Below are positions 5,510 to 39,126 of a DNA stretch of 64,000 bases, piece after piece (position 1 is the stretch's first letter; each line of letters starts with the position of its first letter). The notes under the pieces are model-generated. The model did no database searches. It had not been told where the DNA came from and saw nothing but the letters and a program-made list of their open reading frames with translations. Location of the stretch: NCBI GenBank assembly GCA_964465575.1, contig CAYXIF010000004.1, positions 12,212 through 76,211 on the forward strand, in the 5' to 3' direction. The DNA is from an uncultured Candidatus Bathyarchaeia archaeon (GTDB lineage Archaea; Thermoproteota; Bathyarchaeia; Bathyarchaeales; DTEX01). Both the position numbers and the translations under genes were made by a program.

Positions 5510-6304
5510 ATGCGCATGATTCAGATCCAGAAGGTGAAGGCCGAGGCTCCCAAGGTCAAGACCTTCTCTTTTAGGGACGAGCTCTGTTCATCAGCCGAGC
5601 CCGGCCAGTTCATCATGGTCTGGATCCCAGGGGTGGACGAGATACCGCTGAGCATCTCTTCCACTAGCAACGAGTCGTCATCTGTGACTGTGAGAGAAGT
5701 CGGAGAAGCAACCCAAGCGCTGAACGGAATGAAGAACCGCGATGTGTTCGGTGTTCGAGGACCCTTCGGCAACCCCTTCAGGATTGAGGGCAAAGAAGCC
5801 TTGGTCGTCGGCGGAGGCATTGGAACGGCGCCTCTGATGATGTTGACTACGAGGCTCCTCGCTGAGAAGGTGAAAACTACTGTCGTGGAGGGAGCAAAGA
5901 CCTGTAGCGAGCTTCTCTTTGTAGACCAGCTGAGAAACCTTGCTGTTAAGGGAGTTGCTGAAGTGATCTTGGCAACAGATGATGGCAGTTGCGGAACCAA
6001 AGGACTGGCAACCGAAGTGGCGGAGAGGTTCCTTTCCTCAAGAAAGTTCGATATCATTTATGCTTGTGGAAGCGAGGCTATGATTCGCAGAATGTACCTT
6101 CTAGCCAAGAAGCACAATACTTCCTTACAGGTGAGCTTGGAACGCGTCATGTTGTGTGCTATGGGCATCTGCGGAAGCTGTGTCATAGGAAAGTATCGGG
6201 TCTGCAAAGACGGCCCGGTCTTCGATCAGACCTGGCTGAAAGAAGTCGAGAACGAACTTGGCAAGACCAAACGCGACTTCAACGGGGGTAAGGTTCCCGT
6301 CTAA
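5510..6304 (+). CDS. pyrK: Dihydroorotate dehydrogenase electron-transfer subunit (FAD / 2Fe-2S)
   Basis: Ferredoxin-reductase-like fold motifs (GGGIGTAP) and C-terminal Cys cluster CAMGICGSCVIGKYRVCKDGPVF. ATG lies 5 nt after the pyrD stop. Confidence 0.85.
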   Translation: MRMIQIQKVKAEAPKVKTFSFRDELCSSAEPGQFIMVWIPGVDEIPLSISSTSNESSSVTVREVGEATQALNGMKNRDVFGVRGPFGNPFRIEGKEALVVGGGIGTAPLMMLTTRLLAEKVKTTVVEGAKTCSELLFVDQLRNLAVKGVAEVILATDDGSCGTKGLATEVAERFLSSRKFDIIYACGSEAMIRRMYLLAKKHNTSLQVSLERVMLCAMGICGSCVIGKYRVCKDGPVFDQTWLKEVENELGKTKRDFNGGKVPV

Positions 6305-6717
6305 GCAGTGCTTTCGCTAGTCTTGGGTTTGCTTGCTTGGCCAGTTACTGGCTTTATCTTCTTCAGATAGTCCTCAACAGCTGCACGTAGCCCATCAGCA
6401 GCCAGATTCGAGCAGTGCATTTTCACCGGAGGCAGCCCGTCCAGATTGTCAGCGACATCAGCTCTCGTTATCTTCATCGCTTCTTCGAGAGTCTTTCCTT
6501 TTGCCAGCTCAGTTACCATGCTACTTGTGGCAATCGCGGCTCCGCAGCCGAACGTCTTGAACTTTATGTCCAATATGCGATTCTTTGTGACCTTAATGTA
6601 GATGGTCATGAGGTCGCCGCAAACAGGGTTGCCGACCGTGCCAATCCCGTCGGCGTCCGGAATTTCGCCCATGTTACGTGGGTTCCTAAAGTGCTCCAGA
6701 ACTCTCTCACTATACAT
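6301..6717 (-). CDS. iscU: Fe-S cluster scaffold protein IscU/NifU-like
   Basis: Three ligand cysteines in GNPVCGD, FGCGAAIA and HCSNLA contexts. Start overlaps the iscS-like stop. Confidence 0.9.
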   Translation of the reverse strand: MYSERVLEHFRNPRNMGEIPDADGIGTVGNPVCGDLMTIYIKVTKNRILDIKFKTFGCGAAIATSSMVTELAKGKTLEEAMKITRADVADNLDGLPPVKMHCSNLAADGLRAAVEDYLKKIKPVTGQASKPKTSESTA

Positions 6718-7895
6718 TATGCGATCAGCCCCTTCGGTGTCAACGGCGAGATCAACCTCAACCTCCTCACTATTCCAGGCAACAAGTCAGCCACGTAGTC
6801 AACGTCTTCCTTGGTGTTCCCCTTTCCAAGGGTGAAGAGGAGTGAGCCATGCGCTTCCTCATGCTTCAAACCTGTCGCCAAGAGAACGTGAGAAGGCTCC
6901 AAGGTCTTTGATGTGCACGCTGAACCAGAGGAGCAGGATACTCCTTCCATGTCTAAGCTGAGTATCAGAGACTCGCCTTCAATGTAGCTGAAACGGACGT
7001 TGACATTATTGGGCAGGCGTCTGCTCGGGTGACCGTTCAGGTACGATTCAGGGACTTTGTCGAGAATCACCCCGATGAACCTGTCCCTTAGCTTTGCCAA
7101 CCTGTCGGCTTCATATCCGATTTCAGATCCCGTGATCTCTGCTGCTCTGCCCATACCCACTATCCCTGGAAGGTTCTCGGTTCCGGACCTTAGGCCTCGT
7201 TCTTGCCCACCCCCATGAATTAGTGGTTGGATGGGGACACCAGTCTTGATGTAAAGGGCTCCTGTCCCTCTTGGACCGTACATGTCGTTTGACGAAAGAG
7301 TGAGTAGATCGATGTTCTCTCCCAGAACGTCTATGGGTATCTGACTTGCCGCTGCCACTGCGTCAACGTGAAAGAAAGCTCCTTGGTCGTGCGCTATTCT
7401 GCCGATCTCGGCTATCTGCTGGATTGTACCTATCTCACCGTTAGCATACGCGATAGACACTAGGATCGTCTTGCTAGTGATCTCTTGCTTCAAGGTTTGA
7501 AGGTCAATAGTCCCGTACTTGTCGACTGGTAGGTAGGCGATGTCGAAACCTTGCTTGCTAAGGTCCCTGCACGCGTTGATCACCGACATGTGCTCAATCG
7601 AGCTGGTGACTATCTTGTTTCCTCTTGACTTGTTCTTTTGGGCAACGCCTTTGATAGCCAGATTGTTGCTTTCTGTTCCCCCTGAGGTGAAGATGATCTC
7701 CTCTCTTCGTTCTGCCCCAACAAGGTTCGCTATTTTTGTGCGAGCTTCGAATATAGCCTTTCGCGCCTCATCGCCAAGGGAATGCGTGGAGGACGGATTA
7801 CCATGCTTCTCGGCAAAGTAGGGTATCATAGCTTCTACAACGCGTTCATCGATAGGCATTCCTGCTGCGTGATCCATGTAGACTCTTCGCATCAT
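6717..7895 (-). CDS. iscS: IscS/NifS-family protein lacking the PLP-binding lysine (SSND in place of SGHK)
   Basis: Class V aminotransferase fold. The catalytic-loop Cys is retained (SSGSACTSKTLEPSHVL), but the Schiff-base Lys position reads DLLTLSSNDMYGPRG. Preferred start is MMRRVYMDHAAG (ATG 7895) after a GGCGG-like RBS. Confidence 0.85.
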   Translation of the reverse strand: MMRRVYMDHAAGMPIDERVVEAMIPYFAEKHGNPSSTHSLGDEARKAIFEARTKIANLVGAERREEIIFTSGGTESNNLAIKGVAQKNKSRGNKIVTSSIEHMSVINACRDLSKQGFDIAYLPVDKYGTIDLQTLKQEITSKTILVSIAYANGEIGTIQQIAEIGRIAHDQGAFFHVDAVAAASQIPIDVLGENIDLLTLSSNDMYGPRGTGALYIKTGVPIQPLIHGGGQERGLRSGTENLPGIVGMGRAAEITGSEIGYEADRLAKLRDRFIGVILDKVPESYLNGHPSRRLPNNVNVRFSYIEGESLILSLDMEGVSCSSGSACTSKTLEPSHVLLATGLKHEEAHGSLLFTLGKGNTKEDVDYVADLLPGIVRRLRLISPLTPKGLIA

Positions 7896-7914
7896 AGAAC
7901 CGCCATCCGCACTG

Positions 7915-8289
7915 TCAGAAGCACAGGACAGCATCAGCGTCTAGGAGTCGGTCGTTCAGTGTCGCCGCGCCCACTATCTTGGAAGCTTCCACGAAGTCTC
8001 CCCGGGACAGTCCAAGAAGCATACAGCTTTGCTCGCAGACCTCAAGCCTAACTCCGGCTTTGACCGCTTGGTCCATAACCTCCTTCAGGGACGGAAAGTC
8101 TCCCAGCTTGATCTTCTCAGCTTCACCTTTCTTGACCAACGTCACCCCTTTAATGAGAAAGTATATCGTGGCATCAATCCCCATTGCGGTAGCAGTAGTA
8201 CCGAGTATGAAAGGCGCGTAAGCCCGCTCTGGCGTATCGACACCACTCGTCTGGACATAGAGTATCTTTTTTTGACTCAAATCCTTCAA
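7915..8289 (-). CDS. DsrE/TusD-family sulfur-relay protein
   Basis: 124 aa. N-terminal ILYVQTSGVDTPERAYAPFILG alpha/beta pattern typical of DsrE/DsrF-like proteins, and conserved Cys region VCEQSC. Adjacent to tusA. Confidence 0.7.
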   Translation of the reverse strand: MKDLSQKKILYVQTSGVDTPERAYAPFILGTTATAMGIDATIYFLIKGVTLVKKGEAEKIKLGDFPSLKEVMDQAVKAGVRLEVCEQSCMLLGLSRGDFVEASKIVGAATLNDRLLDADAVLCF

Positions 8290-8292
8290 TCC

Positions 8293-8535
8293 TCATTCAG
8301 CCTTTCTTATTAGAAACCTGAGATGACTTCCATTGTCTCTAAGCTCAACCAGCTCTTGCCCAGTCCGCCTAACCAGGCTCTTTATGTCCTCCTCTGCTGC
8401 TGGGTCATCCGCAAGAACCTCTAGAACTTCGCCGACGGCAATCTTGTCCAATTCCACACGAGTTCGGAAGACTGGTTCTGGACAGTATAGCCCTATGCAG
8501 TCTAGAGTGCGGTTGGGCCTAGGGTTTGAGGGCAT
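8293..8535 (-). CDS. tusA: TusA/SirA-family sulfurtransferase
   Basis: 80 aa with the diagnostic LDCIGLYCPEPV (CPxP) motif. Confidence 0.85.
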   Translation of the reverse strand: MPSNPRPNRTLDCIGLYCPEPVFRTRVELDKIAVGEVLEVLADDPAAEEDIKSLVRRTGQELVELRDNGSHLRFLIRKAE

Positions 8536-8554: not shown

Positions 8555-8571
8555 ATATAACAGCGTTATAT
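8555..8571. promoter_or_regulatory. Palindrome ATATAAC-AGC-GTTATAT overlapping the TATA region of the tusA-dsrE-iscS-iscU operon
   Basis: Read directly (atataacagcgttatat). Centre is about 28 nt upstream of the tusA ATG. Shares the core ATAAC-N3-GTTAT with 9688-9702. Confidence 0.5.
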
Positions 8572-8608
8572 ATATGCCTTTCGATACCCTCCATGAAGAC
8601 TGAGCCTG

Positions 8609-9673
8609 TCACGTGTTGCCCAGAATCCTGGTGCTGAAGCCCTGCGCCTCTTCCTCGCTCTGAAGACCTTCGACTATCACTATGCCACTTCTGAGGACAC
8701 TGCCCAAACTATTCTTGGGATTACTAAAGGTCACCCCAAGGTCGCCTTTGACCTTGATCTCGTAACCTTCATGTTCAAGGGAAAGGCGCAACTTCTCCAT
8801 GTCGAGTTCGAGGGGCTTTCTTGGTGACACAAGAAAAACCCTCTTCCCTCCTCTCCCACAAAGCTCGACAACTTGCTTCCGTTGAAGCGTCATTGGTGAC
8901 CCGCGAGGTTCTGAGCCGCACACTGGGCAGTTCTCGGCCTTCTGGATATCTATCTTCTCAAAATCCATTCTACCAATATCGCAGTGAAGCATTCTCCCTT
9001 TCAGAAGCGGTTCCTTCCCGAGTATGATTCTTACAGTTTCTGAAGCTTCGACGGAAGCGACTATGCCTAGAATCGAAGGGTGAACCCCCACGACCGAGCA
9101 TTTCGGCAGCGTCTCATCATCAAGGTTGCCCTGAAAGCACTCAAGGCAAGGGGTCTTTCCGGGTATTATCGTGGACACACTACCCATCATCATAATCGCA
9201 GCTCCGAAAACGTATGGCACGTTAAGCTTCTGGCACGCTCTGTTGATAGCATAGCGCGGGGTCATGCTATCGAGCCCATCCACAACCACATCAACGTTTC
9301 TGACCAAGTCCTCAGCATTATCGACGTTCAATGCCAAGGGCAAAGGCTCAACATCTACCCTAGGGCTAAGTTCACGCAGCTTTTTCGCCGCAACCTCAAC
9401 CTTAGCATAGCCGAGCGCACCCATGTCGTAGAGAGGTTGTCTATGCAGGTTGGAAAGCTCAACGACATCGCAATCGACTAAGCGGAGATGCCCTATGCCC
9501 ATAGCAGCTAACTGTAACAAGATAGGCGACCCAAGTCCACCTAACCCAACAACGCAGACTCTTGCGTTTCTGAGTTTCAACTGTCCTTTGTAGCCCACTT
9601 CGGCGAGGACTATCTGCCGTGAGTAGAGCTCTAGCTCTGCGTATGAGAGATCATTGGTTTCGATGTTAGTCAA
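8609..9673 (-). CDS. E1-like adenylyltransferase (UbaA/MoeB/ThiF family) with an extra C-terminal domain of about 100 aa
   Basis: YSRQI, nucleotide-binding VVGLGGLGSPILLQLAAMGIG, Zn-site CLEC...CPVCG and active-site-region KCSVVGV. A 101-aa tail follows the CPVCG motif and has no rhodanese CxxxxxR motif. Confidence 0.85.
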   Translation of the reverse strand: MTNIETNDLSYAELELYSRQIVLAEVGYKGQLKLRNARVCVVGLGGLGSPILLQLAAMGIGHLRLVDCDVVELSNLHRQPLYDMGALGYAKVEVAAKKLRELSPRVDVEPLPLALNVDNAEDLVRNVDVVVDGLDSMTPRYAINRACQKLNVPYVFGAAIMMMGSVSTIIPGKTPCLECFQGNLDDETLPKCSVVGVHPSILGIVASVEASETVRIILGKEPLLKGRMLHCDIGRMDFEKIDIQKAENCPVCGSEPRGSPMTLQRKQVVELCGRGGKRVFLVSPRKPLELDMEKLRLSLEHEGYEIKVKGDLGVTFSNPKNSLGSVLRSGIVIVEGLQSEEEAQGFSTRILGNT

Positions 9674-9687
9674 ATGACACCGCCTCG

Positions 9688-9702
9688 CATAACATCGTTA
9701 TG
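9688..9702. promoter_or_regulatory. Palindrome CATAAC-ATC-GTTATG between a TATA-like box and the E1 gene start
   Basis: Read directly (cataacatcgttatg). Centre is about 22 nt upstream of the E1 ATG (9673). TATA-like ttaatatg (minus strand) lies at about 9713-9722. Confidence 0.5.
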
Positions 9703-9827
9703 AAACGAGTCCGACATATTAACCTTGCGACAAACAGAAATCCGACCAGAGAAGCCAAAGCGAACACTAAGTTTAAGATCAAGTTGCCTCTGTTTTTCTT
9801 CTCGACTGATAGCCGGATGCAACCGTC

Positions 9828-10112
9828 ATGAAGGTCATAGTCAGATACTTCACAACTATGCGTGAACTAGCCGGTACCTCACAGGAAGAGATGCTGGTGG
9901 GGGAAGGCGCAACCTTGGGTGAGACTATAGAGAGATTGGCTTCGAAATACGGACAAGAGGCGCAACGCTACCTCTACTTTGAAGAGGGCAAGCTTGACCC
10001 GTCGATTCGGATTCTTGTCAACGGTACCGATGCAGGAACGTTGCTTGGCGCGGAGACCAAGCTGAGGGATGGTGATGTGGTGGCTTTAATCCCTCCGATT
10101 GGCGGAGGGTGA
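9828..10112 (+). CDS. MoaD/ThiS-family ubiquitin-like sulfur carrier / SAMP
   Basis: 94 aa, MKVIVRYFTTMRELAG... beta-grasp pattern, C-terminus ...IPPIGGG followed by stop. Divergent from the E1 gene. Confidence 0.8.
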   Translation: MKVIVRYFTTMRELAGTSQEEMLVGEGATLGETIERLASKYGQEAQRYLYFEEGKLDPSIRILVNGTDAGTLLGAETKLRDGDVVALIPPIGGG

Positions 10113-11387: not shown

Positions 11388-11861
11388 ATGATATTCATGA
11401 GCGCTGTTGACCTGGAGAAGTTTCTTGAGAGACACGACCTATGGCACAGATTCATCATCAAGAAAGAGACAATCCACACGTCTGACGCGGCGAAGGCCGC
11501 AGGGGTTAATCTTCATAGGTTGACAAAGAACTTGGTCTCAAGAACTGATACAGGTGAAAGCGTAATCCTGATCGTGCCCGGGGACAGAAGAGTCGATCTC
11601 GGGGCTGCAGCAAGAGCGCTCAATGTTGGTAGCGTTCAACTAGTCCAATCCTCTGAAGCTGAGAAGATCAGTGGTTACACGCCTGGAGCAACGCCTTCGG
11701 TCGGGCACAGGACCAAAATGCGAGCAGTAGTAGACAAGTCTCTCCTTGAGTACGAGACTGTGTACTGCGGAGGAGGGTCGCGTGATAGACTCCTTGAACT
11801 CAGAACCGAAGATATAATAGAACTCAACAACTCAATCGTCGCAGACATCTCTTCACAATGA
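11388..11861 (+). CDS. YbaK/EbsC-type aminoacyl-tRNA deacylase domain protein
   Basis: 157 aa, YbaK/ProRS-associated domain pattern including the YCGGGS block. Confidence 0.7.
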   Translation: MIFMSAVDLEKFLERHDLWHRFIIKKETIHTSDAAKAAGVNLHRLTKNLVSRTDTGESVILIVPGDRRVDLGAAARALNVGSVQLVQSSEAEKISGYTPGATPSVGHRTKMRAVVDKSLLEYETVYCGGGSRDRLLELRTEDIIELNNSIVADISSQ

Positions 11862-25613: not shown

Positions 25614-25950
25614 GACGGCGGGTCTTAGGCGGGGGGCTAGGGGTCCCTTGAGAGGCTACGTGAGCTTCATCCGTAAATCCCCTATACGACGGGCCGAGAT
25701 CCGAGGCGAGGCTCAGAAGATCATGGGGCGCCTTAGCCGTCCATCTATGAGCATCCGTCCTCTTGGGCTGACGGTCGCGGGAGTGTCCTTCGTAAGGAGG
25801 ACGCAAATGCGTTTGCCAGGTGAATCTGGCCAGGACCGGGAGGGAGCAACCTAAGCTTGGACGTTCAGCGCTCAGAGGGGTGCGGGTGTGAGTGAAGAGG
25901 CTGAAGGAACCCTTTGAACACTATGCGTCGGACCCCGGTGACCCGCCGTC
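25614..25950 (+). ncRNA. Signal recognition particle RNA (archaeal 7S RNA)
   Basis: Helix-8 signature CCAGGACCGGGAGGGAGCAACC (compare E. coli 4.5S CAGGUCCGGAAGGAAGCAGCC) with a GGGA GNRA loop. G-rich Alu-domain 5' segment GGCGGGGGGCUAGGGGUCCC. 5' GACGGCGGGUC pairs with 3' GACCCGCCGUC. T-rich tract follows. Ends uncertain by about 10 nt. Confidence 0.8.
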
Positions 25951-35602: not shown

Positions 35603-36283
35603 GTGAGCATTTTGCCGCTCAAGATTGACCTTCACGTTCATACGAGCTACTCTCACGACTGCCTGACAAGCCTCGATAGCGTGATCTCTTTTGCACAGAA
35701 ACGACGCTTAAACGGTGTTTCCATAGCAGATCATGATACAATTGAAGGCGCTCTAAGACTCCTAGAGATGGCGGGCACAGGGTTGATCATAATCCCAGGG
35801 ATCGAGGTGTCAACAAGCCAAGGGCACCTACTGGGCATCAATGTTACCACGCCAATCCCTCGGGGACTTAGCATAGTGGAAACCGCTGCCAGAATACACG
35901 AAGCCGGCGGTATTGCTGTCGCTGCTCACCCGTCTTCGCCATTCAAACATGCTATAGGCCTTGACGAACGACTCATCTCATACGGTGTGGACGCGGTTGA
36001 GACTGTCAATTCAACGAATTTCCCGTTCTTTCTACTGAACTACTTGGACAAGCGGCTCGCCAGACGCACAGGGCTTCCGGTGACTGGAGGAAGCGACGCC
36101 CACTTACCTGAGGCCATAGGACTAGGCTACACTTTGATAGATGAAACGGGAACTGAAACAGACATTGACGCTGTGGTCCAAGCCATCAAGAGGGGAAGGT
36201 GCGTTCCCATTGGTAGGCCAATGCCGTGGAGACTGAGGCTGCGGAAGATTACACTAATGAGCAGTAAGCCTCCTGCGCACTAG
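35603..36283 (+). CDS. PHP-domain metal-dependent phosphoesterase
   Basis: IDLHVHTSYSHDC, ADHDT and GGSDAH motifs. Confidence 0.75.
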   Translation: MSILPLKIDLHVHTSYSHDCLTSLDSVISFAQKRRLNGVSIADHDTIEGALRLLEMAGTGLIIIPGIEVSTSQGHLLGINVTTPIPRGLSIVETAARIHEAGGIAVAAHPSSPFKHAIGLDERLISYGVDAVETVNSTNFPFFLLNYLDKRLARRTGLPVTGGSDAHLPEAIGLGYTLIDETGTETDIDAVVQAIKRGRCVPIGRPMPWRLRLRKITLMSSKPPAH

Positions 36284-37380
36284 AGCTGGTACAGGCCTAG
36301 GTCCATGGTTAGGGGCTTCACAGTTTCTTCGGCGGCATCCAACTCGTAGATCTCGGGTACAGCTGAACCGTATCCGCCGTACACGTACTGGGATCGGACC
36401 CCAGTCATGACGAGCGTGACTTTCAGGTTTCCCGCTAGGCTTGGGTCGACTCTGGCCCCCCAGATGATCAGAGCATCATCGCTCATCATTTGGGTAACGA
36501 TTTCGCCTACTCTATTGGCTTCGTCTATGGTCATCTGCTCGTCGCCTGAAACGTGGATTAAAGCTCCTTTCGCGCAGGTATAGTCGACATCTAGCAAAGG
36601 CATGTCCAAAGCTTTCTGCACTGCTTCTTCGGCTCTGTTGGGCGCGTCTGATTGCCCCACACCAGCCACAGATATGCCACCCTTCTTTACGATTGTTCTG
36701 AAATCCGCGAAGTCTAGGTTTATCAAGCTCGGCGCGGAAACTATCTCAGTGATTCCCGCGATCATGTTCGCCAAGACACCGTCCCCAACTCTGAAGGCTT
36801 CATTTAGCGGCAGCTGTGGAACGAGACGTATCAGCTTGTTGTTATCTATCACTATGACAGTGTCACATTCCCTTCGCATTTCGGTAAGCCCCTTAACGGC
36901 GTAGGCGATCCTTCCCTTTTCAATCTTGAAAGGCATTGTTACAACCCCGATGACAATGGCCGCCTTGTCCCTAGCCATCCTAGCAACAACAGACGCGGCA
37001 CCTGTGCCAGTCCCACCTCCCATGCCAGCTGTGACGAAGACTATGTCCACATCCTCCAGAACTTTTCCAACTAGCTCAGCGGACTCCTCAATCGCTGCCC
37101 TTCCAACGCGAGGGTCTCCACCTGAACCCAGTCCACGTGTTAGCTTTTCTCCAATCAGGATCTTCTGCTTCGCGTGTGTGGCTTTCAAGTGTTGCATATC
37201 AGTATTGATGGCGATGCATTCAGCGCCCACAATATTGGACTCAGTCAGACGACTCACCGTGTTGTTTCCCGCCCCCCCAACGCCCAGAACCATTATCCGA
37301 CAGGAGCCGGGCTCCCGAAGCCCTTCAGGGATCGTCTCGTCCCACGTGAATTGCAGCGCCTTGTCAGCTATCTTTGTCAT
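36280..37380 (-). CDS. ftsZ: Cell division GTPase FtsZ (canonical motifs)
   Basis: VLGVGGAGNNTV, tubulin signature AGMGGGTGTGA and T7 loop NLDFADF. ATG 37380 (MTKIADK) is preferred over the track start at 37410. Confidence 0.93.
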   Translation of the reverse strand: MTKIADKALQFTWDETIPEGLREPGSCRIMVLGVGGAGNNTVSRLTESNIVGAECIAINTDMQHLKATHAKQKILIGEKLTRGLGSGGDPRVGRAAIEESAELVGKVLEDVDIVFVTAGMGGGTGTGAASVVARMARDKAAIVIGVVTMPFKIEKGRIAYAVKGLTEMRRECDTVIVIDNNKLIRLVPQLPLNEAFRVGDGVLANMIAGITEIVSAPSLINLDFADFRTIVKKGGISVAGVGQSDAPNRAEEAVQKALDMPLLDVDYTCAKGALIHVSGDEQMTIDEANRVGEIVTQMMSDDALIIWGARVDPSLAGNLKVTLVMTGVRSQYVYGGYGSAVPEIYELDAAEETVKPLTMDLGLYQL

Positions 37381-37528
37381 CCTTTTCCCTTCCCCATAGC
37401 TCCATGGCAATCAAGTCCCTGATGGCCACGCGGATAGCTTCCGCTCTATGCGGATAGTACCGCTTGTTCACCAGCTCCTCGAGTGCCTCCAAGTATGGTT
37501 CGGGAAGATATATTGTGATGAGTTTCAC
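37364..37528 (-). CDS. Small ribbon-helix-helix (CopG/CdrS-like) DNA-binding protein, overlaps ftsZ start
   Basis: Not in ORF track (54 aa). Own translation from GTG 37528, with GGTGAG RBS at 37531-37537: VKLITIYLPEPYLEALEELVNKRYYPHRAEAIRVAIRDLIAMELWGREKDDKDS. Classic RHH pattern (beta strand ITIYLP, then two helices). Stop TGA at 37364-37366, 17 nt inside ftsZ. Confidence 0.65.
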   Translation of the reverse strand: MKLITIYLPEPYLEALEELVNKRYYPHRAEAIRVAIRDLIAMELWGREKDDKDS

Positions 37529-37580: not shown

Positions 37581-37610
37581 CATGATTTAATCATGATTCA
37601 ATCATGAATG
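37581..37610. promoter_or_regulatory. Three CATGA(T/A)T repeats at 11-bp phasing upstream of the RHH-ftsZ operon
   Basis: catgatttaatcatgattcaatcatgaatg: CATGA begins at 37581, 37592 and 37603. Internally palindromic (TCATGA). Lies between the TATA-like ctttataaag (37619-37628) and the RHH start. Confidence 0.5.
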
Positions 37611-37749: not shown

Positions 37750-39126
37750 GTGCCCGCATGGATTTGCTTGATAAGGTTGGTCCCTGATGTATTTTCAAGC
37801 GTTCAAGGGTTGTCGAACGCTTCCTCTGCGGAGTGTCCCGCCGCTGGTCTGTTCTATGTAGAGAATTACGGGTGCGCAGCCAACTCCTTTGATCTAGGTG
37901 TTATAAACGCCCTCTTGATCAATGCGGGATACCGGCCGGTCAGTAGGCCTGATCAGGCAAGTGTCGTTGTCGTGAATACCTGCGGGGTGAAGAAACCTAC
38001 TGAGGACAGGATCATTGGAAGAATACGACTCCTCAACCAAATCAACAAACCTCTGGTGATTGCAGGTTGTCTTCCAAAGATCAACTTGGAAGCTGTGCTG
38101 AGAGCAGCACCAAACTTCTCTGCCATCCTTGACCCTTGGAGCGTCGATAAGATACTCTTAGCCGTGGAAGAAGCTGTCAGCGGTGGGAAGAATAGGATAT
38201 ACTTCTCTCAAAAGCCCATCCAGAAGTTGGACCAGCCTAGAATGCGGCTCAACTCTACAATCGAGATCGTGCAAGTCTCTGAAGGATGTACCCGCGCCTG
38301 TGCCTTCTGCTGTGTAAGGCTTGCCAGAGGCGCGCTTTTCTCCTATCCAGTAGAGAAGATAGTTCGAAGGATCACTCAAGCAGTCTCGGAGGGCGCGAAC
38401 GAGGTTTGGCTCACTTCCCAGGACAATGGAGCTTACGGTCTAGACATCGGCACCAATATCGCTGAGTTGCTCTACCAGTGTTGCCAAGTCGCGGGGAAGT
38501 TTCTGATCCGAGTCGGCATGATGAATCCTGACCATGTACTTGGGATGCTTCCTGAGCTAGTCCGCGCATACAAGCAAAAGAAAGTTTTCAAGTTCTTGCA
38601 TGTGCCTATTCAAAGCGGCGACGACGAGACATTGAAGCGCATGAACCGTGGTTACACTGTTGATGAGTTCGAAACGATAGTCAACTCGTTCAGGGAGGTC
38701 ATTCCCCGGATAACTCTTTCCACAGACGTCATATGTGGATTCCCCGGAGAGGGCCGGGAAGCCTTTGGGGAGACTCTAAAGATAATCAATAAAACAAAGC
38801 CTGACATAGTCAACATTTCAAAGTTCTTTCCAAGACCAAACACGCCTGCAGAGAAGATGGAGCGCGTCGACCCAAAAGAGGTGAAGGACAGAAGCCGGGA
38901 GCTAACCAAGCTGGCAAGAGAGATTTCTTCCCAAAGAAACAGGACCTGGCTGGGTTGGGAGGGCGAGATGCTCGTCGACGAGAAAGGGAAGGATTTCACG
39001 TGGGTTGGGAGAAACTTTGCCTACAAACCAGTAGTGGTGAAGAGCGATGAGAACCTGGCTGGGAAGTTTGTGCGTGCAAGGGTCGTTGAGTTCTTCTCGA
39101 CCTATCTTGGAGCCGTGGTCACTTAG
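37750..39126 (+). CDS. Radical-SAM methylthiotransferase, MiaB/MtaB (CDKAL1-like) family
   Basis: MTTase N-domain Cys (YGCAANSFD, NTCGVK, AGCLP), radical SAM CTRACAFC and a C-terminal TRAM-like segment. The true start is probably downstream (for example TTG 37810), because a TATA box (gtatatatat) abuts 37750. Confidence 0.8.
   Translation: MPAWICLIRLVPDVFSSVQGLSNASSAECPAAGLFYVENYGCAANSFDLGVINALLINAGYRPVSRPDQASVVVVNTCGVKKPTEDRIIGRIRLLNQINKPLVIAGCLPKINLEAVLRAAPNFSAILDPWSVDKILLAVEEAVSGGKNRIYFSQKPIQKLDQPRMRLNSTIEIVQVSEGCTRACAFCCVRLARGALFSYPVEKIVRRITQAVSEGANEVWLTSQDNGAYGLDIGTNIAELLYQCCQVAGKFLIRVGMMNPDHVLGMLPELVRAYKQKKVFKFLHVPIQSGDDETLKRMNRGYTVDEFETIVNSFREVIPRITLSTDVICGFPGEGREAFGETLKIINKTKPDIVNISKFFPRPNTPAEKMERVDPKEVKDRSRELTKLAREISSQRNRTWLGWEGEMLVDEKGKDFTWVGRNFAYKPVVVKSDENLAGKFVRARVVEFFSTYLGAVVT

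Follow-up and report, generated by a model that had tools for sequence, protein, structure and literature searches.

Do two short intergenic palindromes, one in front of the sulfur-relay operon that begins with tusA and one in front of a gene for an E1-type adenylyltransferase (E1), place these two transcription units under a common regulator? The question is raised by a 64-kb stretch of DNA (64,000 nucleotides; hereafter the window, to whose numbering all coordinates without a locus label refer) from an uncultured Candidatus Bathyarchaeia archaeon (contig CAYXIF010000004.1). A preliminary description had proposed that a shared ATAAC-N3-GTTAT operator makes the operon and the E1 gene one regulon. 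Our comparative analysis leads us to read the palindromes as operators that serve a conserved sulfur regulon and at which a stand-alone protein of ThiR type would bind and repress transcription; judged from sequence, we give this reading a probability of about 0.75.

Recurrence of the palindrome in front of sulfur genes

Direct reading of the sequence confirmed the coordinates that had been given for both palindromes (candidate operators 1 and 2; Table 1) as well as the 28 and 22 nt that separate their centres from the respective start codons. A scan of the full window for ATAACNNNGTTAT returned exactly two matches, in keeping with the earlier remark that no further copies could be seen by eye, compared with 0.01 expected (100 dinucleotide shuffles, 0/100 of which reached two). 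No additional copies of ATAAC-N3-GTTAT with one mismatch were found in the 64-kb window, nor other intergenic copies, with up to two mismatches, of the 15-bp family consensus given below, and the motif is present in 2 of the 35 intergenic regions of the window. Because the pattern was chosen after being seen, having been defined post hoc from these same two palindromes, the window statistic is weak by itself, and the decisive support is the cross-genome recurrence of the motif.

This recurrence was assessed in two sets of loci, namely 80 genome loci around E1 homologues (794 kb) and 80 metagenome loci around the gene of a candidate regulator (387 kb). Exact ATAAC-N3-GTTAT sites numbered 76 in the E1-centred and 114 in the regulator-centred set, giving a total of 190 in 1.18 Mb where a first-order Markov model, with separate fits for coding and intergenic DNA, predicts ~1. 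Within the E1-centred loci and the window, 67/78 sites are intergenic, although ~84% of the DNA is coding. The motif in related loci is hence ~190-fold over expectation and strongly intergenic, the opposite of the random frequency without promoter bias on which, by its own account, the preliminary description would have given up a common operator. Alignment of 152 unique sites yielded the consensus T-ATAAC-R-N-Y-GTTAT-A, with symmetry extending to a T at position -1, an A at +1 and the R and Y that flank the centre. Operator 1 matches this 15-bp consensus, TATAAC-RNY-GTTATA, with zero mismatches (8556-8570); operator 2 has an exact core and carries C and G at the outermost two positions where the consensus has T and A.

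Recurrence extends to equivalent promoters. An exact palindrome occupies the corresponding position upstream of E1 in six related loci (L001, L003, L004, L007, L016 and L017), and sites precede operons for DsrE2, TusA, cysteine desulfurase and IscU in six as well (L019, L026, L033, L034, L043 and L059). One of these loci, L004, a contig of a Bathyarchaeia metagenome-assembled genome (MAG; CAYRBK010000006.1) with five exact sites, has a tetranucleotide composition at the window's self-level (r = 0.947) and is the best available relative for further comparison, its E1 being only 64% identical to that of the window despite the matching composition.

To survey the putative regulon, genes starting at most 250 nt from a site were clustered and annotated by Pfam and NCBIfam. 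Almost all of them are sulfur-related. The commonest encode a ThrC-like pyridoxal phosphate-dependent enzyme with a zinc-ribbon N-terminus (14), E1 (10) and DsrE2-like carriers (7), followed by CysK/M and assimilatory sulfite reductase (6 each), and by SAMP/MoaD, a YeiH-type transporter, the FTR1 permease, 3'-phosphoadenosine-5'-phosphosulfate (PAPS) reductase and stand-alone RAM domains (4 each). Further flanking genes encode cysteine desulfurases, TusA, FdhD, Thi4, MetY, CysE and ATP sulfurylase, as well as SepCysS with its small partner SepCysSn, a stand-alone tRNA-Thr_ED domain and homoserine dehydrogenase; ThiI is encoded directly 3' of the regulator gene. Recurrence before orthologous and linked genes thus supports the proposal that a shared operator makes one regulon, but the scope envisaged for it was too narrow: the comparative data support a regulon for broad sulfur assimilation and mobilisation, wider than the iron-sulfur (Fe-S)/TusA operon plus E1.

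The sites also punctuate a recurrent gene cluster. In its general form, a site precedes the genes for the ThrC-like enzyme, SAMP, homoserine dehydrogenase and E1, a second site follows and sulfite reductase and TusA come after it, while a site-preceded DsrE2-TusA-cysteine desulfurase-IscU cluster lies divergently; the tusA-dsrE-iscS-iscU operon of the window is the local version of the latter. Loci L019, L022, L026, L033, L034, L053, L063 and L073 carry the ThrC-like/SAMP/homoserine dehydrogenase/E1/sulfite reductase/TusA cluster (e.g. L019 2446-8130). Judged by its genes, this cluster has the look of a pathway that leads from sulfite via a protein thiocarboxylate to homocysteine, which suggests a possible use for the E1/SAMP pair of the window.

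Among tRNA genes, 14/19 of those for tRNA-Cys(GCA) have a site, and in 12 of these cases exactly 23 nt separate its centre from the 5' end of the mature tRNA; for the other tRNA genes in the loci the count is 0/15. A tRNA-Cys-SepCysSn-SepCysS operon, with tRNA-Cys(GCA) first and a palindrome of its own upstream, is divergent from the regulator gene in L093-L106, L113, L152 and others (e.g. L095 4784-4887). Such an operon of Bathyarchaeota has already been described, without mention of a regulator, in a study that also linked SepCysS loci with editing-domain genes (PMC5424206). In line with that link, a stand-alone archaeal tRNA-Thr_ED editing domain has a palindrome in front of its gene at L093 2887-3339 and L096 1924-2346. 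The window itself encodes a YbaK/ProX-type tRNA_edit protein (11388-11861, +) that adjoins NadA and has no site. Divergent pairs of genes for stand-alone RAM (the ligand-binding domain of Lrp/AsnC; ~80 amino acids) share one palindrome between them at L042 3630-4205 and L046 7980-8556; these pairs could be amino-acid-sensing partners of the regulon.

A small helix-turn-helix protein as candidate regulator

Which protein might bind the sites? The candidate is a protein of 120-137 amino acids (~126 as a rule) with an HTH_3-like helix-turn-helix (HTH) and a conserved CxxC..CxxH..CxxC tail, for which NCBIfam offers no name. Enough upstream DNA was available for 75 metagenomic copies of its gene (37 clusters at 90% identity). 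In 74 of them an exact palindrome follows a canonical TTTATAAG TATA box at a distance of 2-4 nt, its centre lying 21-27 nt upstream of the start codon; the site of the 75th has one mismatch. Divergent copies (43-52% identical) have exact or one-mismatch sites, and further copies in L012, L017 and L034 have a one-mismatch site just upstream. In a complete Bathyarchaeota chromosome (CP070759.1) the regulator gene has a site, with two more in front of an operon for PAPS reductase, ATP sulfurylase and sulfite reductase, and in a MAG labelled Hermodarchaeota the regulator gene, again with a site, adjoins that for SepRS. L085 encodes two copies, one of which has no exact site (614-1021). Two shortened copies, at L012 1645-1986 and L034 9203-9544, keep only the first CxxC and have one-mismatch sites at their own promoters.

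The family is large and almost without annotation. One search returned 740 close homologues, which go by the names 'predicted transcriptional regulator' or 'hypothetical', and a profile search gave 647 clusters at 50% identity (E of 1e-10 or better). Residues L13, P14, R17, those of the HTH and C94, C97, C120 and C123 are invariant, and C5, C107 and H110 nearly so. Pfam HTH_3 was matched by 36/36 members (best E 6.4e-5), with scores of 23.6 bits for the L042 copy (cut-off 23) and 20.2 bits for member P0121, while ArsR (HTH_5) was matched marginally and by 2/36 only. The AlphaFold2 model, built from alignment A3, is all-helical (predicted local distance difference test score 80.6). No significant relative of solved structure was found by sequence, the best Foldseek match in the PDB had an E of 0.35, and neither Pfam nor NCBIfam recognised an effector domain.

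The same profile search led to proteins of 303-323 amino acids, the first ~125 residues of which align with the whole regulator, whose remainder matches Pfam ThiN (E 1e-45 to 1e-52) and in which CxxC..CxxH..CxxC is kept; P0121 and the ThiN-fused P0289, for instance, are 41% identical over residues 1-123 (E 5e-29). A DNA-binding domain joined to ThiN is the published architecture of ThiR, the archaeal thiamine repressor, which reportedly acts at promoter palindromes of genes whose products make metabolites that contain sulfur. ThiR is therefore the closest known family, and the palindrome-associated protein is, by its sequence, a stand-alone ThiR-type DNA-binding module. Both share the N-terminal module including the Cys/His motif and, set beside each other by description only, palindromic operators; Thi4 (thiamine thiazole synthase) and ThiI are the only thiamine-related gene products flanked by sites here. 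They differ in the effector domain, as the 120-137-residue proteins contain no ThiN and have no room for one, and in their targets, which are thiamine genes for ThiR and genes for sulfur assimilation, cysteine and methionine synthesis, sulfur relay, Fe-S assembly and tRNA-Cys here. A more distant homologue, in a Hydrothermarchaeota MAG (L167 733-2614), is divergent from thiI, which copies from Bathyarchaeia also adjoin. As L167 shows this linkage without ATAAC-N3-GTTAT, the association of regulator and thiI appears older than the operator sequence. A homology search with the Hydrothermarchaeota protein gave five matches, none of them a named, characterised relative.

By the logic of comparative regulon analysis, the sites on its own gene argue that the HTH/Cys protein is probably the binder of the palindrome and autoregulated. 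Alternatively, the palindrome could be a genuine operator bound by a different transcription factor, with the HTH/Cys protein being merely one of the regulated genes. An upstream site alone does not prove autoregulation, the protein has no recognisable effector domain, and other regulator genes do occur beside sites, namely one for a DtxR/FeoA-type repressor in L073 and the stand-alone RAM gene pairs of L042 and L046. Against this, the HTH/Cys gene is the only gene for a DNA-binding protein that lies consistently beside sites (the 74 of 75 copies in 37 clusters mentioned above), whereas DtxR was seen at one locus only and a DNA-binding domain is missing from the RAM-only proteins; moreover, the ThiN-fused relative that was examined has no site on its own gene. 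We therefore consider a different binder unlikely.

Promoter geometry and mode of action

How the sites lie relative to promoter elements bears on what a bound protein would do. In an alignment of seven orthologous E1 upstream regions, which are 49% identical overall (the E1 proteins being 60-66% identical), only two blocks are invariant, namely AA-GTTAATA, corresponding to the transcription factor B recognition element (BRE) and TATA box, and, 13-16 nt further downstream, ATAAC..GTTAT. Phylogenetic footprinting, which the preliminary description had recommended, thus singles out the core promoter and the palindrome. Upstream of the E1 TATA box there is one more block, less strongly conserved than these two, that probably belongs to the divergent SAMP promoter. 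In archaeal promoters, the distance from TATA box to transcription start is usually ~26 nt, so with the inferred E1 box at 9716-9726 (AAGGTTAATAT) the start is expected inside the palindrome. Counted from there, the E1 leader would be ~18 nt long and contain GAGGCGGTG.

At tusA, the BRE/TATA region (GAAAGGCATATATATAA) was assigned by analogy with the DsrE2-type and sulfite-reductase promoters, in which TTTATATA or TTTAAATA abuts or overlaps a half-site, and would overlap the upstream half-site of operator 1. The arrangement is alike at the tusA, DsrE2, sulfite-reductase and tRNA-Cys promoters, where the upstream half-site adjoins or overlaps a TATA-like box; the CysK, YeiH and PAPS-reductase promoters have two or three tandem sites spaced 13-17 bp apart. 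The earlier observation that the sites lie at or just downstream of TATA-like boxes accordingly stands, since they either overlap the box or fall between it and the start codon. These positions fit occlusion of TBP/TFB or of RNA polymerase, i.e. repression.

The mechanism that we propose is as follows. A homodimeric HTH regulator, the ~126-residue ThiR-type N-terminal module encoded outside the window, would recognise the 15-bp inverted repeat. Bound to operator 1, which would overlap the TATA region of the tusA-dsrE-iscS-iscU promoter, and to operator 2, which would cover the predicted E1 transcription start 13 nt downstream of the conserved BRE/TATA, it would block TBP/TFB or RNA polymerase and thereby repress both units together. 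The signal could be sulfur or Fe-S status, perceived via the Cys/His cluster. This cluster may, however, be only structural, a metal site instead of a sulfur sensor, since it is ancestral and kept in the ThiN-fused relatives.

The same sites could in principle serve an activator or a factor acting both ways, for example by aiding TBP on weak TATA boxes in sulfur limitation. Several half-sites are TATA-like themselves (TATAAC, GTTATA), some sites have a second, divergent gene at a distance of ~90-130 nt, and sequence does not reveal the sign of regulation. Yet the site always falls between the canonical TATA box and the start codon at the regulator gene, downstream of the conserved BRE/TATA at E1 and on the TATA box at the tRNA-Cys, DsrE2 and sulfite-reductase promoters, positions that are generally known from the repressors MDR1, LrpA, Phr and NrpR, which makes activation quite unlikely.

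An action of the palindromes as RNA, be it as a hairpin in the 5' untranslated region, as an attenuator or, for operator 1, which comes after the E1 stop codon, as an E1 terminator before tusA, is very improbable. The inverted repeats can form a hairpin of 6-7 bp with a 3-nt loop, but with folding energies of no more than -2.0 and -2.2 kcal/mol these hairpins are weak, and the one at tusA is not the minimum-energy fold in its context (z -0.23). It is the bases that are conserved and not their pairing, as ~190 exact copies compare with 17 intergenic compensatory double variants, mostly unrelated AT-rich sequence. Many sites overlap or precede TATA boxes and therefore would not be transcribed, sites at divergent promoters work in either orientation, and Rfam gave no match at the palindromes. 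The hairpin or terminator reading was thus rejected on account of very weak hairpins and missing covariation. Finally, chance similarity among AT-rich promoters, or a generic basal element without a specific regulator, might be suspected from a pattern picked post hoc in AT-rich intergenic DNA with a TATA-like half-site, but is next to negligible given the excess over expectation in both the window and the related loci, the restriction of the motif to few intergenic regions, sulfur-related genes and tRNA-Cys, and the separate conserved BRE/TATA upstream of E1.

Several points weigh against an operator for a stand-alone ThiR-type repressor. Both locus sets are centred on E1 or on the regulator, which biases them toward sulfur genes. 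An exact site stands directly before E1 in only 9/77 E1 homologue loci, these being the nearest relatives plus L042, L043 and L072, while many of the others belong to operons in which the site precedes the first gene, or stand in a sulfur-unrelated context without one; direct control of E1 would be lineage-specific. The repressor geometry is deduced from standard archaeal promoter spacing. A tblastn search found no regulator gene in the window, and the tetranucleotide composition of the captured regulator loci reaches at best r 0.78 with the window, compared with 0.93 for the window against itself, so that presence of the regulator in the same genome is an inference. The site at the regulator gene would be explained just as well if that gene were the target of another factor. 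The two shortened paralogues lack most of the Cys motif, and neither the Hydrothermarchaeota homologue nor one ThiN-fused homologue has ATAAC-N3-GTTAT at its own gene. As these distant homologues are without the palindrome, the operator appears specific to a Bathyarchaeia-centred clade.

Table 1 Positions of the candidate operators, promoter elements and adjoining genes in the window.
Feature	Position	Strand	Details
Operator 1, ATATAAC-AGC-GTTATAT	8555..8571	.	Centre 8563, 28 nt upstream of tusA ATG (8535)
Operator 2, CATAAC-ATC-GTTATG	9688..9702	.	Centre 9695, 22 nt upstream of E1 TTG (9673)
E1 promoter BRE/TATA, inferred	9716..9726	-	AAGGTTAATAT; 13 nt upstream of operator 2; invariant in orthologue alignment
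tusA promoter BRE/TATA, putative	8566..8582	-	GAAAGGCATATATATAA; overlaps upstream half-site of operator 1
tusA, sulfur carrier, first gene of operon	8293..8535	-	Pfam TusA E 3.6e-23; NCBIfam TusA
dsrE-like sulfur-relay gene, second of operon	7915..8289	-	Pfam DsrE and DrsE_2; 3-nt gap from tusA
nifS/iscS, cysteine desulfurase	6717..7934	-	Pfam Aminotran_5; NCBIfam NifS E 2e-153; overlaps neighbours
nifU/iscU, Fe-S scaffold, last gene of operon	6301..6717	-	Pfam NifU_N; NCBIfam NifU_clost above cut-off
E1-type adenylyltransferase, ThiF/MoeB/UbaA-like	8609..9673	-	Pfam ThiF, residues 17-251, E 6.7e-72
MoaD/SAMP-like ubiquitin-fold sulfur carrier, ends GG	9828..10112	+	Pfam ThiS; NCBIfam MoaD_arch and SAMP1 above cut-offs

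The genes adjoining the two palindromes are listed in Table 1; Pfam and NCBIfam upheld the assignments as TusA, DsrE, NifS/IscS, NifU/IscU, E1 and a divergent MoaD/SAMP-like protein. Operator 1 falls in the 73 nt that separate the E1 stop from the tusA start. E1, for which NCBIfam MoeB and UbaA matched under their cut-offs, belongs to a large Bathyarchaeia family, with its nearest homologues (64-68% identical) coming from Bathyarchaeia MAGs, and its TTG start is backed by orthologues, whose ATG aligns there. C-terminal to the ThiF domain, the protein has a conserved extension of ~100 residues without a Pfam match, and an invariant CPxC (residues 249-252) marks the boundary of the two. The SAMP gene is divergent from E1, an arrangement that recurs in L001, L004 and L016. 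Whether it belongs to the regulon in the window is uncertain, because operator 2, 133 nt upstream of the gene, sits ~75 nt beyond the SAMP gene's own TATA-like box; in other genomes, SAMP is encoded within site-controlled ThrC-like operons. An E1 look-up located the same contig in four Joint Genome Institute (JGI) sediment metagenomes (Ga0315306, Ga0315310, Ga0315312 and Ga0212089) and returned no regulator from these samples.

Elsewhere in the window, two overlapping tandem palindromes, CATGATTTAATCATGATTCAATCATGA (CATGATT-N-AATCATG twice), lie at 37581-37610 between the divergent genes for FtsZ (36280-37410, -) and a MiaB/RimO-like radical-SAM methylthiotransferase (37750-39126, +). This tandem element is a further candidate operator and has no relation to the ATAAC motif; all other duplicated intergenic palindromes of the window trace to it. 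An archaeal signal recognition particle (SRP) RNA was recognised at 25616-25948 (+; Rfam RF01857, 127.7 bits); the open reading frame at 25648-25854 falls in it and was discarded as spurious.

Relation to known regulators and biological meaning

Besides ThiR, several systems invite comparison. SurR, the sulfur-response regulator of Thermococcales, is an ArsR-type winged-HTH protein with an N-terminal CxxC switch that recognises GTT-N3-AAC and switches hydrogenase and S0-reduction genes. The system described here resembles it in being archaeal and sulfur-linked, with short core-promoter palindromes and with predicted cysteine-based chemistry and autoregulation. In contrast, its half-sites come in the reverse order (AAC-N3-GTT, inside ATAAC-N3-GTTAT), its HTH is HTH_3/XRE-like, its CxxC pairs are C-terminal, and its putative targets serve assimilation and biosynthesis. 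IscR, SufR, CysB, CymR and McbR likewise place cysteine desulfurase/IscU or sulfur-assimilation genes under one regulator, usually autoregulated, and as in IscR and SufR the Cys-rich ligand set could hold a metal or an Fe-S cluster. They are, however, members of unrelated protein families with other operators (Pfam and NCBIfam gave no Rrf2, LysR or TetR match for the regulator), whereas the sites here stand in an archaeal TATA/BRE context.

MDR1, LrpA, Phr, NrpR and the TrmB family are archaeal promoter-occluding repressors with sites at the TATA box or between it and the start. The palindromes share these positions and, in some promoters, a tandem arrangement; protein family and operator differ, as does the presence of an RNA gene, that for tRNA-Cys, among the targets. 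AmzR belongs to an unrelated family (bioRxiv 10.1101/2025.05.05.652248).

An HTH protein on a palindromic core-promoter operator is thus of a well-known kind. The regulator family, the operator, an archaeal sulfur regulon and the inclusion of tRNA-Cys, on the other hand, appear undescribed in the literature searched, which yielded nothing relevant on the motif, on a regulator of sulfur assimilation in archaea or on a regulon of Bathyarchaeota. We know of no account of how sulfur assimilation and cysteine synthesis are regulated in archaea, and the literature search agreed. The most far-reaching version of our proposal, that the stand-alone ThiR-type HTH protein is the first archaeal master regulator of sulfur assimilation to be described, reading sulfur or Fe-S status via its own Cys/His cluster and co-repressing the regulon, is tentative, and we rate it at somewhat below an even chance. 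If true, sulfate reduction, cysteine and homocysteine synthesis, the SAMP/E1 thiocarboxylate system, TusA/DsrE/IscS/IscU and the tRNA-Cys-SepCysSn-SepCysS operon would be repressed together, and a protein factor would match the expression of a tRNA gene to how much of the cognate amino acid is available.

Among the uncultured archaea of sediments, Bathyarchaeia belong to the most abundant. For them, the analysis provides a concrete regulator-operator pair together with a predicted regulon that connects sulfate reduction with cysteine synthesis, both direct and tRNA-dependent, with the sulfur relay and Fe-S assembly, and with what is probably a route to homocysteine via a protein thiocarboxylate. 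That the E1/SAMP system is functionally linked to the sulfur donors TusA, DsrE and IscS, as the preliminary description suspected, is supported by these findings. As the regulator is small and its site short and near-invariant, in vitro tests should be easy even without a cultured host. Beyond the window, the findings suggest a candidate role for a widespread, unannotated family of small proteins and point to control of a tRNA gene by a transcription factor.

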